Positions 40,999 through 62,631 of a DNA stretch of 64,000 bases are shown here, in pieces. Position numbers and translations under genes: made by a program. Positions within the stretch are counted from its first letter, which is position 1. Each line of letters opens with the position of its first letter. The notes under the pieces were generated by a model. It searched no databases and was not told where the DNA came from. It worked only from the letters and a program-made list of their open reading frames with translations. The DNA is from Dendronephthya gigantea (lineage: Eukaryota): positions 10,208 through 74,207 of the forward strand of contig NW_021163311.1 of the NCBI RefSeq assembly GCF_004324835.1, in the 5' to 3' direction.

Positions 40999-41433
40999 TT
41001 ACAGTTCATCTTTTACTGCATTATCGTAGAAGAACGTTTCTCCACATTTTTTGCAATATTCGTATGGCACTGTTACTTCTTTCCCTCCATCAAATTGCAT
41101 TTTGACTGGCTCTTTAGCAGGGATCTTCTCGTGATTGCCGTTCGGGCAAGGTGTTATGCTTTCGACTTTGTATGAATCTGGCGTGAATACCACTCTCTTG
41201 TGTTTTACCTCTTGAACGAAACTTTTGTATCTTTTTCTCACTCTCTTTATCCCCAGAATAGGTTTGACCACTTTCAGTACAGGTTTAACCACTTTTTTGA
41301 TAACTCTTTCTACTGGTCTAGTTACATGTCGAATAACCCTTTTCAGACCTCTTAAAATACCAGAAACCTCGACTGTAGAAGACAGTAGAACTACACCGAT
41401 AAGGCCAAAAGCTAGCAAAGTCGCTTTTCTCAT
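40999..41433 (-). CDS. A0: diverged paralogue of cassette gene A; secreted, strongly cationic, C-terminal KDEL
   Basis: MRKATLLAFGLIGVVLLSSTVEV signal. It shares HVTRP, RV.K.Y..F..EVKH.RVVF.P.SY.VE.I.PC..G.H and YCKKCGE.FF with the A copies. It ends ..FFYDNAVKDEL*. Confidence 0.65.
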   Translation of the reverse strand: MRKATLLAFGLIGVVLLSSTVEVSGILRGLKRVIRHVTRPVERVIKKVVKPVLKVVKPILGIKRVRKRYKSFVQEVKHKRVVFTPDSYKVESITPCPNGNHEKIPAKEPVKMQFDGGKEVTVPYEYCKKCGETFFYDNAVKDEL

Positions 41434-41684
41434 GATTTTATGGTTCGATAAAGCGTCTCCGAGTTAAAGTGCTGACTAGAATCGCATGCACTTGGCTGAT
41501 TAAATCGACATAAACAAATATTCGACAAAAGGCATTTATATGATCAATACAACACCACCAGCTGTGATATTTCTAAGCTGTAAAGTGGAGCTAACCGATC
41601 ATATCACTGATTTTGTGAACTGTTTACCTCATAACGAATGAGTGGATATTATTAAGATATTTATTTAGCTTGACGGCGAATACC

Positions 41685-41854
41685 TAAAGCCGGTTCTCCA
41701 TCGTAGGCGAAATGGTTCGATCGAACGAAATTTTTCGCTCGATTTTCTTTTCAATTGTGAGAAATCGACCGTGGCTGATGATCTTGACCTTTCTTATCGA
41801 GCGAAAATTTTCGTTCGATATAAAAATATCGCCTAGTGGAAAACCGGCTTAAAG
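41685..41854. repeat. 170-bp hairpin or MITE-like element (~60-bp inverted arms)
   Basis: cctaaagccggttctccatcgtaggcgaaatggttcgatcgaacgaaatttttcgctcgat pairs with atcgagcgaaaattttcgttcgatataaaaatatcgcctagtggaaaaccggcttaaagg. Confidence 0.55.
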
Positions 41855-42528
41855 GCCTGGCTTTATTAAAGTCTGTTTCAGCTCATTTGCATCAGGTCAG
41901 AGCATCAGAAGAGCGACGCCTTGACCTAGATCTAAATATTTTTAGTTGCTATAGGACTTTGCAGAGAAGATCGAATTTGCGGCTTTGCCCTTTGAGATTT
42001 CGCAATTTGCTTGTGGTATTCATATGATCATATCCAAACATTGCTTATCATTAAACAATCATATAATGCTTGTCGGACATGGAATTTACTGCATCACCTG
42101 AAAAGGTAGGTATAAGAACGGATAAAATTGGTCACGGGCAGCAATTTTAGCTGTGTTGTACCAATAATTTAAGTGTAATCTAAACCGACATTGCTTGCCG
42201 AATATTAATAGATTTCGGCGAATGCGGAATTATTCCTATTTCCTGAGATTTAACGTCTGACGTTTCAGAATTTGCTTACTAGTTCATTTTCAAAGATGCG
42301 GCAGTTGCTTCTGGTCTTTAGGGCTTATGTCATTTTTATCTTTATAAATATTAAACGCTTGCCTGATCTGCAAAAAAATTCAGTTGGGCCAATCATAATG
42401 CTTGTCTGACAAGGAATGTATTGCATCATCTGAAAAGGTAAGGGCGGCCCCCAGTGCATCTCAGTAAGCATTGCGCCGTTTCCATGTAGCTGAATGCATC
42501 CTATTTTTAGTCATTCTGCTGAAATACT

Positions 42529-42912
42529 ATGAAGAAATCATCTTTCCTAGCACATGGATTGACTATCCTGGTGGTCCTTTGCTGTGCCACCGAGGTAACC
42601 TGTTTCATAGGCAAAATTTTCAAGGAAATAGACAGAGCTCTTTGCAGATTCGATCGCCATGTTACTCGACCTTTTATCAAAGCCATCGGTCTTGTGAGGG
42701 TGAAGAAAACGTACAGACAGTTCAAAGAAGAAGTTAAACACAGCAGAGTTATTTTCTCGCCAAATTCATATCGTGTGGAGAAAATAAAACCGTGCGCTCA
42801 TGGACATCACGACATCGTTCAGGACAAGCGAGCGATTGAGATACAATTTCAAGATCAAGCCGTTACATTTCGTCACAAATACTGCAGAAAATGCGGACAG
42901 AATTTCTTCTAG
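42529..42912 (+). CDS. Cassette gene A, copy 1 (127 aa, short form): signal peptide plus cationic Cys-containing mature protein
   Basis: MKKSSFLAHGLTILVVLCCATEV signal, then ..RVKKTYRQFKEEVKHSRVIFSPNSYRVEKIKPCAHGHHD..YCRKCGQNFF*. Conserved in 5 copies and in paralogue A0. Confidence 0.7.
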   Translation: MKKSSFLAHGLTILVVLCCATEVTCFIGKIFKEIDRALCRFDRHVTRPFIKAIGLVRVKKTYRQFKEEVKHSRVIFSPNSYRVEKIKPCAHGHHDIVQDKRAIEIQFQDQAVTFRHKYCRKCGQNFF

Positions 42913-43281
42913 ACTCCAATAAAACCTTGCGTTATGCAGACAAATAGTTTTTCACGGACAATGCAAAGAACACATGTGATGTGAATGGCTTTAATTGAGC
43001 TTATTTTATTTTTAATAGACTATTATGTACTCGCTTTTTAAAATTTAATCATGATATTTGACTATTATATATGATTGACTATAACTTGATAATAGCATTA
43101 TAAAACGATGATTGAGTTAAATACTAAACTGATTTAGTGTGTTCATGAAGATTCGTCATGTGCGAGATATATATGTTATATAAACAACACACATCTTTCT
43201 AAATATATAACGTTTGTTGTCAATTGAAATACAATCTATGATGACAGTTTTAAAATCAGTGCAAAAGTGCGTTCGCTTGAT

Positions 43282-59991: not shown

Positions 59992-60372
59992 TCAGTGCAA
60001 AAGTGCGTTCGCTTGATCTAGCAGCGGTTTTAATACTGGATGAAGTGCTGTGATCTTCTTCAGTTGATCTAATGTCATAAATATCATACCAGATGCCGCA
60101 CCACATTTTGAACAGATAAGAACAGAGCTCTTGATGTACAAATCGTTCGTTATAGTCCTGGAACCACGATCCGATTTCGAGGAAAGTGTGATTCCGAGAA
60201 GGCTTGATTTCCCCTTGTTTTCCCAAGTTACAGTGCTCCGAACGGAAATCGTCAGCCATCCTACGCCTCTTGGCTCGAAATTATGCGGTGGGCAGCTTGA
60301 AGCGGCTGTGATCACAATCACAACTGCTGACAACAATATCTTAAAGTTCAGCGGCGACATTTTGCGAGTCAT
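59992..60372 (-). CDS. Cassette gene B, copy 5 (126 aa, diverged N-terminus)
   Basis: MTRKMSPLNFKILLSAVVIVITAASS.. The unit ends here. No C or D copy follows. Confidence 0.6.
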   Translation of the reverse strand: MTRKMSPLNFKILLSAVVIVITAASSCPPHNFEPRGVGWLTISVRSTVTWENKGKSSLLGITLSSKSDRGSRTITNDLYIKSSVLICSKCGAASGMIFMTLDQLKKITALHPVLKPLLDQANALLH

Positions 60373-61857
60373 TGCGTATCTTCACTGGAGGATAATTCTG
60401 CATGAGAAACAGCGATCGTTAGGCAAAGAATGATCGCTGAAACTCTTTGAATATATCTCTTTAATAACGCGGTACAGACGAATGATTACATACACAAACT
60501 TTATGGCCGTCTACACTGCATTAAGTATGCGTATTTACACGTGACTCATTAGACCATAAAATTTATGGTGCTCTTTAAAACCTGCGCGAGTTTACCTGCA
60601 CTCCCACACATGCATAGAGGGTTATATTTTACAATTTGTGATGGACAATTTCAACATCGCATATTTACTAATAAAAGTTTTCAAACCCAATGCAGGGGAA
60701 CCCGTTTGACTGCAAGCTCAACAAGCGTTGAATATATGACATTTGGGTCCGTTTAATATGTGACATTTGAAATGTCACATGCACTGTTTCCAAGGAATGG
60801 GCGGAGCGTCCATTTCTGCTTTGACATAGTTGCAGTGTTGTTGAAAGAAAGGGCTTTAAAAAACGTGCTTGTGTTAAAAGAAAGCGCTTTCTTTTAACTG
60901 ACTGTAGGATCGCCCTTTTGTATCATCGTATGTCTTTCCACATTTTAAAAAACCGCAAGTGTTTCGAATAAGTTTACATGCAAGATGCAGACCAAACCCG
61001 TGTGAATTTCAAAATTCAAATGTTATATTCTAAACGACCCAACCGATGCGTTGGGAACGCTTGTTATTTTGAAGTCAAACGGAATCCGCTGTATCTGCAA
61101 TCATAGCTAAATAAACCGCAATCATAGCTAACCAACATCATGGGGCACTGTTAACGGCAGCCGAAAGAGCTGTTGAGACCTACTTATTGAATTGTCAATT
61201 GTGTTTTTTGGGGGGCACCCTGTATATATTTGGTATGTATTCAGTTACAGCCAACATTGTCACTGAAACCGATATTCCATTCAAACAAGAATATCTAAAG
61301 AAAAGTATAGCGTGATTTGCATGTAGCTAGATACTTGTAGACAGACAAGAAAACTTGAAACAAAAATCAAACATGGCATCAAAAAGTGAACTGAAAGTCG
61401 TCTAAATAAATGAACTAGCTGGAAAGGCTTATATAATTTAGGAAAGCCCACCAACTCTCGATGTCAGTAAGGAATAGTAAAAATAGACTTAAATAGTCAT
61501 ATTTTAAATTCAAATAGAGTATTTCGTTAAGAATACAGCGATAAAACTATGTTTCCCGTGCTAGGCAGATGTAAATAACGATAAACTTGAATGCAGAGTT
61601 CTTGAAACACTCTAAAATACCAGTAATCTGTCTGTACCGAAATACAACAGAGCGGTTTGACCGTTTTTACCGAATAAAGGAAAGCGCCCTTAGTTAGACA
61701 AGAAGCTGACCTTTTAACAAACAGGTTCAACATTAGGTATTGAGTATCATCTCTCTTGAATGAGTCAACTTGAATATTATGCACTGAATATGTAGTTGTA
61801 AACAGTATCTTTGTATTAAGGTTAAAAACATTTAGTTTGCTTGTTGAATAAAACGAT

Positions 61858-61923
61858 AGACTTGCTTTCTATTTTGAACTTATCCACCGTTTAAGCTAAA
61901 CGGGCTTGATACAACCGGCCCCT
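61858..61923. mobile_element. Solo terminus of the 27682-27915 MITE family
   Basis: ctattttgaacttatccaccgtttaagctaaacgggcttgatacaaccggcccctg matches the right end of the MITE at 27861-27915. Confidence 0.5.
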
Positions 61924-62220
61924 GACCTAAATCATATTTCTATCTTATATAATTCACAATGTGTAAATAATGACGTAATTTGCACACTGAAAATAGCTCA
62001 CATATGCTTGCAATAAAAAATCTTGTCCTGATTAATTAGCAAAAAGCAAAAAACTTATGAGTTATGTAGTTAATAGTCACGTCAGTTATATATGAGATAC
62101 AATTCATACAAAGATAATACAAAACAGTACTGAAAATCAAGGCTTTCAGTCCGACATCAAGGTAAAAATGGTCAGTCATATTGATCGGGTACATAGCCTC
62201 TGATAAAGATGTACAGTACA

Positions 62221-62631
62221 TTATTTTCCTCCAATTAATGCGTGCTTTTTATAAGCAACACCATTTGCAACCACATTGTTAAGTGTATTGAAAAAGTAAT
62301 CAAGGCATTTATCGTTATCGATGCACGCTTTATCTGAACTCATTTCAAAACTGCCACCTTTATATTTAACCGTCTCTGAGCGAAATTCCTGTTTATGACT
62401 TGAATATTTTAATCCAACAACACTGCCGTTCAATGTTACTCCAAAATTCTTCGAAGAAGTCTTCTGATGGGATCGCTCCACTGTCAGATCACCTTCAGTG
62501 AATTTTACCTTAATAGGACCGTTGGATATTTCAATAATCTGTTTTGATTCCGTGTTCATTTCAGCAGGTTGAGTTTCACCATGACAGCAGACAGTGAATA
62601 TCGCAATTAATGCGTACTTTAACACGTACAT
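62221..62631 (-). CDS. D0: diverged paralogue of cassette gene D (136 aa from the ATG at 62631)
   Basis: MYVLKYALIAIFTVCCHGE signal, then ..KACIDNDKCLDYFFNTLNNVVANGVAYKKHALIGGK*. It shares the CC(Y/H)GE signal-end, the C..DKxC pair and the NG(I/V)xYK..LI.G tail with the D copies. Confidence 0.55.
   Translation of the reverse strand: MYVLKYALIAIFTVCCHGETQPAEMNTESKQIIEISNGPIKVKFTEGDLTVERSHQKTSSKNFGVTLNGSVVGLKYSSHKQEFRSETVKYKGGSFEMSSDKACIDNDKCLDYFFNTLNNVVANGVAYKKHALIGGK

Follow-up and report, generated by a model that had tools for sequence, protein, structure and literature searches.

We analysed a stretch of 64,000 nucleotides from Dendronephthya gigantea (contig NW_021163311.1, positions 10,208 to 74,207 of the forward strand), hereafter the window, in which the region from 41 to 63 kb appears to hold an old, lineage-restricted cluster of four orphan gene families, A, B, C and D, each predicted to code for a small protein that enters the secretory pathway. 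In profile hidden Markov model (HMM) scans of all six frames, the window yielded loci of A (6), B (5), C (4) and D (5). Five A, five B, four C and four D copies form a tandem array of repeat units, or cassettes, and the remaining A and D genes, A0 and D0, stand on either side of it; no additional B0 or C0 relics were found beside A0 and D0 by these scans. The two flanking genes, the parts of A0 and the array are as follows.

40999..41433, minus strand: A0, complete single-exon coding sequence from ATG to TAA, 144 aa, the KDEL-bearing A member of ancestral type
41359..41433, minus strand: putative signal peptide of A0, residues 1-25 (MRKATLLAFGLIGVVLLSSTVEVSG), read from the sequence, with a probable cleavage after G25
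41224..41358, minus strand: cationic amphipathic arm of A0, residues 26-70, a repeat-like V.(R/K)PV..V.K region
41029..41223, minus strand: conserved beta-rich core of A0, residues 71-135, with C96, C127 and C130 invariant and H101 nearly invariant (C-x4-H ... C-x2-C)
41002..41028, minus strand: C-terminal tail of A0, YDNAVKDEL, with the KDEL codons at 41002-41013 and the stop codon at 40999-41001
41535..41540, minus strand: putative core promoter of A0, a TATAAA box read from the sequence some 100 nt 5' of the ATG
42099..60468: tandem array of 4.4 units in the order A(+) B(-) C(+) D(-), the units being 4132-4269 bp long and 94-97% identical (self-BLASTN, sliding-window identity)
62221..62631, minus strand: D0, intact, 136 aa, with a family-consistent ATG at 62631 and the stop codon at 62221-62223, a strongly diverged D paralogue

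The A0 protein

A0 is a diverged paralogue of the cassette A genes, as a sequence-only reading of the window had proposed: its open reading frame (ORF) is intact and BLASTP aligned it with A1, the first cassette A gene, with an E value of 9e-35 and 37% identity over 135 aa. The strings quoted in that reading, namely RHVTRP, EVKHKRVVFTPDSYKVESITPC, YCKKCGETFF, a cationic segment of 45 residues and a C-terminal KDEL, are all present in the translation; the tail, given there as 8 aa, has nine residues (YDNAVKDEL) past the common ...FF. Judged by inspection, residues 1-25 of A0 comprise a basic n-region, a hydrophobic core of 14-16 residues and V-x-G at positions -3/-1, and this region aligns with the N-termini of all homologues. 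A0 has two sequence features of a soluble protein retrieved to the endoplasmic reticulum (ER), a signal peptide, recognised by eye, and a C-terminal KDEL, the latter fitting the PROSITE PS00014 C-terminal pattern, which we take to be [KRHQSA]-[DENQ]-E-L.

The nearest orthologue of A0 was found in another genome (locus L008), with 76% identity, a synonymous divergence (dS) of 0.60 and an overall ratio of non-synonymous to synonymous divergence (dN/dS, or omega) of 0.24. Between these two orthologues omega was 0.06 in the core and 0.67 in the arm, non-synonymous evolution being about 7 times faster in the arm than in the core. Together with orthologue-pair dN/dS values of 0.22 for C and 0.38 for D, the value of the A0 core indicates purifying selection.

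The A0 arm carries a charge of +16 over its 45 residues and reaches a maximum helical hydrophobic moment (muH) of 1.02, against 0.54 +/- 0.13 in shuffled arms, none of 2000 shuffles attaining the observed value. The same computation gave lower moments for LL-37, cecropin A, melittin and magainin 2, so that the earlier description of this segment as extremely cationic, amphipathic and similar to an antimicrobial peptide holds in its physicochemical sense. A cationic arm is not peculiar to A0, since most KDEL-bearing homologues have arm charges of +11 to +15; arms of the Pocillopora type range from +3 to +8 with 13-16 acidic residues, and the cassette arms are the least charged (A1 +7, A4 +2). 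The number of V.(R/K)PV..V.K-like repeat units differs among species, Pocillopora having four repeats of 19 residues. In the AlphaFold2 (AF2) model of A0 the arm is a single long helix of low confidence, with a predicted local distance difference test score (pLDDT) of 45-58. The sole match of the A profile outside the family was P0046, a protein of 605 aa made of IVDRPVE(K/R)IVEK repeats; as it matched the arm only, the arm is better described as a low-complexity amphipathic repeat than as a specific domain.

Residues 61-135 of A0 were modelled by AF2 as a confident beta-rich domain (pLDDT 81-93; 81 for the trimmed model). A basic cluster, G-x-[KR][KR][VI][KR]K, conserved across homologues at the junction of arm and core, was modelled as a beta strand inside this confident core (pLDDT above 80 from residue 61), and in most members it forms no canonical R-x-[KR]-R site. 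In the family alignment, where the spacing is C-x4-H and C-x2-C, H101 reaches at least 90% conservation and C96, C127 and C130 are invariant; the model places C-x4-H ... C-x2-C-G in turns between beta strands. Such an arrangement might bind a metal; alternatively, two of the three cysteines could be paired in a disulfide, with the third a free thiol. Searches against Pfam-A gave no match above the gathering threshold for A0, A1, A4, B, C, D or D0. The zinc ribbon at the C-terminus of LEF5 was matched by the A proteins in Pfam, but only weakly and below cut-off (E = 0.017-0.06); PDB profile searches returned nothing for A, and Foldseek of the A model against PDB gave no match at E <= 1, the best being 1.4. 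Neither by sequence nor by fold was a zinc-ribbon family or structure significantly matched by A in Pfam, PDB and Foldseek searches. A WD40-like nature of D was considered and set aside, the PDB profile scores being diffuse and repeat-driven with no single significant stretch, which we attribute to beta-strand composition and not to homology. As to conserved cysteines, the mature A and B proteins have three each, an odd number, and C and D two each. An unpaired thiol in A and B would permit an intermolecular disulfide, if the cysteine counts are a guide.

The KDEL tail and the history of the cluster

A full HMM scan of 1.84 billion representative proteins gave 28 hits only, which makes A a narrow family; the A profile search gave 22 homologues, and those named come from Nematostella, Exaiptasia and Pocillopora. 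Many others lie on coral-type contigs, and the homologues as a whole are of hexacoral type. About 20 homologues, these three genera included, end in KDEL, RDEL, KQEL, REEL or HDEL. In an alignment of 23 sequences, a KDEL, RDEL, KQEL or REEL end is carried by 16 of the 17 database homologues outside a tail-less clade that contains A1, so that the conservation of the tail in orthologues, a check suggested by the sequence-only reading, came out positive. The tail starts about 7-11 residues past the conserved ...CG..FF, and more distant A members end in HDEL, GDEL, NDEL or KQDL. It is absent only from the cassette A genes, from their close relatives P0001-P0003 and from P0020. No remnant of a KDEL tail was found downstream of the stop codons of A1, A4 and the A1-like gene of contig L001, which belongs to another species.

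In a neighbour-joining tree of the A proteins (200 bootstraps), A0 clustered with the KDEL-bearing P0006, P0004 and P0005 (87.5%). The sister group of this A0-type clade is the tail-less clade (100%), formed by A1-A5 of the window, P0001, P0003 and the A1-like gene of L001; the two clades are joined at 97% and nested among KDEL-bearing sequences of other anthozoans. Contig L001 has one A0-type and one A1-type gene, adjoining. This nesting of the tail-less clade, and the presence of both types on L001, identify A0 as the conservative founder type. KDEL had been taken for an extension gained by A0; the tree and the roughly 20 tailed homologues indicate the opposite polarity, the tail being the ancestral state of the A family and the cassette A genes the derived ones that lost it. 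The position of the sequences in the tree also indicates that the split between A0-type and A1-type genes predates the divergence of at least three sampled species.

The linkage of the four families was examined by tblastn with the window proteins as sole queries. In Nematostella, matches to B (2.6e-31), D (6e-18) and C (3e-12) adjoin the A gene; the four genes, arranged C(-) A(+) D(-) B(-), take up no more than 3.2 kb and are flanked by TopBP1 and P5CS. With the four families already adjacent there, the cassette is no recent invention. Elsewhere we found B, D, an A1-like gene, C and an A0-like gene in this order on L001, D and C on L003, D, A and B on L005 and L006, [A B D C] twice on L007, B, a weak D and A on L009, and D head-to-head with A on the Pocillopora contig L010. 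These loci point to an old A-B-C-D unit, the four families being linked from Nematostella to corals. Divergent head-to-head pairs, their start codons 270-1100 bp apart, recur: the window has D/A and B/C, Nematostella has C/A, and both L005 and Pocillopora have D/A.

On L007 (1837-15970, another species) the whole [A(KQEL) B D C] unit is doubled, with an offset of 7.5-8.1 kb and 87-98% identity, and the second D copy is broken into three frames; this duplication is independent of the window array.

The C and D proteins have in common an N-terminal LP(V/I)xYDxxTGK motif of 17 residues (hhalign probability 70%, E = 4e-5), and the C profile matched D ORFs of the Pocillopora and L005 type at 3e-5 to 5e-4 (window 48033-48341 against 49422-49841; L005 9124-9594; L010 8578-9009). 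C and D are probably distant paralogues on these alignments, and the four families may reduce to three ancestral ones. A homology of A and B, both of which have C..H...CxxC, was rejected, hhalign having matched only the six residues CxKCG, with a probability of 2%.

At the Nematostella locus (L004, DS469616.1, about 321186-324270), the A gene occupies 323142-323579 and is the only one of the four called in the GCA_000209225.1 annotation (EDO38945.1); C (323968-324270), D (322129-322560) and B (321186-321584) are uncalled there, and each has an intact ORF and a signal peptide. Among the coral homologues of A, few have a name in the databases. Annotation seems systematically to miss the small intronless genes of the A-D module, and most A-D genes, absent from current annotations, are invisible to standard comparative analyses. 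None of ten window proteins had an identical entry in the protein collection searched. A search of the literature by named homologue accession or peptide string found no paper mentioning them.

The tandem array, D0 and their surroundings

The copies of the array and the variable patch of its A genes are the following.

42529..42912, plus strand: A1, tail-less, 127 aa, short basic arm type
46659..47062, plus strand: A2, frameshifted, HMM match split over two frames, two 2-nt deletions in the cassette alignment
50816-51199, plus strand: A3, same type as A1, tail-less with the short basic arm
54974..55384, plus strand: A4, tail-less, 136 aa, long acidic arm type
59236-59646, plus strand: A5, same type as A4, tail-less with the long acidic arm
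43285-43628 and 51546-51916, minus strand: B1 and B3, frameshifted
47390..47761, minus strand: B2, intact, 123 aa
55817-56188 and 59992-60372, minus strand: B4 and B5, intact
43875-44196, plus strand: C1, split over three reading frames
48033..48341, plus strand: C2, intact, 102 aa, head-to-head with B2, 271 bp between the start codons
52188-52496 and 56460-56768, plus strand: C3 and C4, intact
49422..49841, minus strand: D2, intact, 139 aa
45265-45684, 53587-54006 and 57847-58266, minus strand: D1, D3 and D4, intact
55052..55150, plus strand: hypervariable patch of the A arm (A4 residues 27-59), equivalent to 42607-42678 in A1, the only coding dip in cassette identity

In the array, each D gene and the A gene that follows it are arranged head-to-head at a distance of about 975 bp. 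The arm of A2 is a recombinant of the A1 and A4 arm types, and A2 is either a pseudogene or the product of an assembly error. An (AT)44 microsatellite at 55643-55730, between A4 and B4, occurs in cassette 4 only and makes the largest difference in unit length.

In the sliding-window comparison the cassettes are 95-100% identical, the only coding dip being about 100 nt in the A arm. Over the 33 residues of this patch, A1/A3 and A4/A5 share 42% identity, compared with 95% over the rest; the patch of A4 has 67% identity to that of P0002, from another species, and the patch of A1 has 64% identity to that of P0003. As the two patch types match other species better than one another, at least two A arm types predate the present homogeneity. 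Among the array copies dS is 0.01-0.13, against 0.60-0.66 to the nearest sampled relatives, and A1-A5 are monophyletic with respect to P0001 and P0003 in the neighbour-joining tree. The cassettes are a mosaic in which, to judge from these identities, the patch is an island of old, trans-specific haplotypes within homogenised sequence. The array is either older than its identity implies and evolving in concert, or the patch has been repeatedly imported.

The birth-and-death evolution proposed in the sequence-only reading stands in part: tandem duplicates, A0-type and A1-type lineages older than speciation and the frameshifted A2, B1, B3 and C1 are its hallmarks, but those of concerted evolution are there as well, in the monophyly of A1-A5 and in the mosaic patch that is less alike within the array than between species. 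The accompanying claim of a recent burst agrees with the unit identity and the low dS, but part of this identity is homogenisation, the patch types being older. Taken together, this argues for a mixed regime of birth-and-death and concerted evolution and not for a simple recent burst.

D0, described earlier as a distant relative of the cassette D genes, aligned with D2 by BLASTP at E = 1e-15 (25% identity over 138 aa); like the match of A0 to A1, this similarity is significant. The signal peptide (MYVLKYALIAIFTVCCHG) and the conserved GG, C103-x5-C109 and NG motifs of D0 are aligned in the two proteins. Database searches gave few D-family proteins and no close orthologue of D0. In the tree, D0 forms a long branch that joins D of the L005 type (99%). 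It matches the L005 and Pocillopora D proteins at 3e-5 and 9e-6, against 0.008 and 0.23 for cassette D2, and shares the motifs SKNFGV and ESKQII with them; its strongest match is still D2. Since in Pocillopora and on L005 D genes of this type are head-to-head neighbours of the KDEL-bearing A gene, A0 and D0 could be remnants of an original pair, now parted by the amplified derived unit, a pattern that we regard as suggestive only.

The surroundings of the cluster differ between species: its left neighbour in the window is the first coding exon of an alanine-glyoxylate/serine-pyruvate aminotransferase gene, AGXT (39633-39971, minus strand; PDB 4cbs_A, E = 9e-27; no Pfam match at E <= 1), the neighbours in Nematostella are TopBP1 and P5CS, and those in Pocillopora an abhydrolase and a Mab-21 gene. 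Between the AGXT exon and A0, at 40068-40211, about ten copies of a 14-bp tandem repeat give rise to RRSCTGGLVPEVLY-type spurious ORFs. Several satellites, of unit lengths 138, 114, 77 and 80 bp, occupy 24807-25362, 33361-33731, 34026-35089, 35886-36439 and 36694-39509; the 138-bp unit is found at two sites 11 kb apart, the larger block of about 20 copies lying just upstream of the AGXT exon. From 2958 to 32442 extends a second tandem array, with at least six intronless genes of 532-546 aa, each coding for a RING domain, a TRAF-type zinc finger and a Kelch propeller; one further copy is truncated (11241-12065) and another frameshifted (15444-15818 and 15704-17074). It is the second amplified family of the window and is unrelated to the A-D cluster. 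The GC content is 33-39% across the 64 kb.

A secretory-pathway reading and its alternatives

We favour, with a probability of about 0.6, the reading that A0 is an ER-lumenal protein whose tail-less duplicates became secreted. According to it, A0 would enter the ER and be retrieved from the cis-Golgi by the KDEL receptor, and this predicted retrieval would have it act in the lumen of the early secretory pathway, where its arm probably sits on membranes or binds polyanionic partners and the conserved function would reside in the Cys3(His) domain. As B, C and D are inherited together with A and often form divergent transcription pairs with it, their products are candidates for its partners or clients. 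After duplication of A, the A1-type daughter would have lost KDEL and most of the positive charge of the arm, and its product is predicted to be secreted, a change that would amount to subcellular relocalisation after duplication. The [A1-type, B, C, D] unit may then have been amplified 4.4-fold by unequal crossing-over in the window genome, with gene conversion presumably keeping the units alike except in the A-arm patch and its old haplotypes, individual copies apparently decaying, and D0, a D paralogue of much greater divergence, surviving where the array ends on the far side. Our confidence is much lower for the physiological role of the A family than for the evolutionary and ER parts of this reading.

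Several points weigh against it. The case for ER residence consists of a signal peptide recognised by eye and of a conserved tail motif, and the ends of three distant homologues (GDEL, NDEL, KQDL) fall outside the PS00014 pattern as we take it. The trees are neighbour-joining trees of short proteins, the placement of D0 may reflect long-branch attraction and the frameshifts could be assembly errors. Gene order varies among species, linkage being kept and collinearity not. Lastly, a fast cationic arm joined to a conserved domain and amplified in tandem also fits the precursor of a host-defence peptide.

That the A proteins are such antimicrobial precursors is the main rival, possible in our view though unlikely. 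The arm would be exposed by signal peptidase and freed by a convertase at the basic cluster, and the conserved C-terminal domain would serve as carrier or pro-domain, in a reversal of the cathelicidin layout. A charge of +16 and a muH above that of classical helical antimicrobial peptides speak for it, as do the recurrence of high charge (+11 to +15) in most lineages, the conserved basic cluster between arm and core, the sevenfold faster non-synonymous evolution of the arm and the trans-species patch haplotypes, which suggest diversifying or balancing selection; tandem amplification of taxon-restricted genes is moreover typical of cnidarian antimicrobial families (PMC10945409). Yet the conserved KDEL-type tail favours ER retention over export for the ancestral form, the basic cluster belongs to a confidently modelled core strand and mostly lacks a canonical R-x-[KR]-R, arms of the Pocillopora type have only +3 to +8 with 13-16 acidic residues, and the secretable tail-less copies have the least cationic arms of all. 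We hold three further readings, together with a mobile-element or viral origin of the cassette, to be less likely than this one. A mobile or viral origin was rejected, there being no transposase-like or reverse-transcriptase-like ORF in the cassette, and housekeeping genes flanking the unit in Nematostella. It is very improbable that the cluster codes for secreted components of a venom or toxin-like kind, amplified and homogenised as the Nematostella Nv1 array is: small cysteine-containing proteins with signal peptides, encoded in a tandem array under concerted evolution, do recall sea-anemone toxin loci, but the mature proteins have only 2-3 cysteines each, where 6-8 are typical of cnidarian toxin folds, Pfam and PDB searches found no similarity to a toxin family, the founder A carries an ER-retention signal, and an omega of 0.06 in the core, which means strong purifying selection, is not the usual pattern of toxins.

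The sequence-only reading taken literally, that of a young cassette and a recent burst, with A0 and D0 as old offshoots and a KDEL extension gained by A0, is still harder to sustain. Near-identical copies, some of them broken, and the far greater divergence of A0 and D0 accord with it; KDEL-type tails in about 20 homologues, sea anemones included, make the tail ancestral and contradict its polarity, the four-gene unit is present in Nematostella, and two A arm types that are each closer to other species require at least two A copies older than the homogenisation. Hardly any weight falls on the idea that A0, D0 or both are decaying relics or chance ORFs without function. D0 is indeed very diverged, with no close orthologue in the databases searched, and other copies of the array are demonstrably broken; but the 76% identical orthologue of A0, with its low overall dN/dS and its core omega of 0.06, already makes a relic A0 unlikely, neither ORF is shortened, both begin with a signal peptide and keep every Cys and Gly that is invariant in the family, and by our own estimate an open frame of 136 codons would arise by chance at 37% GC with a probability of about 1e-4.

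The A-D locus resembles several known systems and belongs to none of them. The Hydra antimicrobial clusters of arminins and periculins code for small signal-peptide proteins that have strongly charged segments; the genes are densely packed in tandem and the paralogues fall into species-specific clades (PMC10945409). The A-D cluster is likewise a cnidarian, lineage-restricted and tandem set of small signal-peptide proteins with charged segments, but it has no sequence relationship to the Hydra families, which are confined to the genus Hydra where A-D spans sea anemones and stony corals, and in A-D four unrelated families are co-amplified as a unit. In arminins the cationic part is C-terminal, after an anionic pro-region, and we know of no Hydra antimicrobial peptide precursor with KDEL. 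Near-identical secreted-toxin genes in tandem, evolving in concert and with some copies non-functional, make up the Nv1 array of Nematostella; the window array is similar in its homogenised, partly broken anthozoan genes for secreted proteins, but Nv1 has one gene per repeat unit instead of four, a cysteine-rich known fold, no ER-retention signal and no island of old haplotypes. Concerted evolution of sea-anemone toxin genes is treated in PMC6802032 and PMC9863223.

MANF and CDNF are ER-resident proteins with an RTDL tail, a lipid-binding N-domain and a C-terminal CXXC. By analogy, A0 would be a small soluble protein of the same plan, with a signal peptide, an N-terminal part that interacts with membranes or lipids, CxxC near the C-terminus and a KDEL-type tail, but no sequence or fold similarity was found between MANF and A: MANF is all-helical (saposin-like and SAP-like) and animal-wide, A beta-rich and anthozoan-restricted. 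With cathelicidin precursors A shares the combination of a conserved domain (omega 0.06) and a fast cationic amphipathic segment (omega 0.67), but the order of the parts is reversed, and A has a KDEL tail and neither a cathelin/cystatin fold nor a demonstrated cleavage site. The invariant C-x4-H ... C-x2-C-G, placed by the model in turns between beta strands, is suggestive of zinc ribbons or zinc knuckles, from which A differs in matching no such family or structure significantly and in being predicted lumenal or extracellular.

A wider and more speculative version of the preferred secretory-pathway reading, which we consider improbable as a whole, would make A-D a hexacoral-specific secretory module linked since before the split of sea anemones and stony corals, with A as an ER escort, B, C and D as its clients, and a secreted effector that arose from an ER resident. 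The sea-anemone/stony-coral split is estimated at roughly 500 million years. The escort would combine a membrane- or polyanion-binding arm with a Cys3His fold not seen before, and might conceivably pair with B through a disulfide. A duplicate of it would have lost KDEL in one coral lineage, its arm diversifying under balancing selection and the rest being homogenised, to give an extracellular effector possibly for host defence or symbiosis.

In molecular terms little is understood of coral secretion, be it in calcification, mucus, symbiosome traffic or cnidogenesis. If the secretory-pathway reading is true, an uncharacterised anthozoan-restricted family with a conserved ER-retrieval signal, whose confidently modelled core matched no known structure in the searches, would be a candidate for a lineage-specific part of the early secretory pathway. 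The linkage of four orphan genes, unrelated or barely related, has been kept from Nematostella to stony corals, and the set has been amplified as a unit in two lineages; small orphan genes do not usually behave in this way, and the pattern suggests common regulation or a joint function. The locus would then also offer a clean natural case of relocalisation by loss of KDEL, followed by amplification, concerted evolution and the protection of a hypervariable patch.

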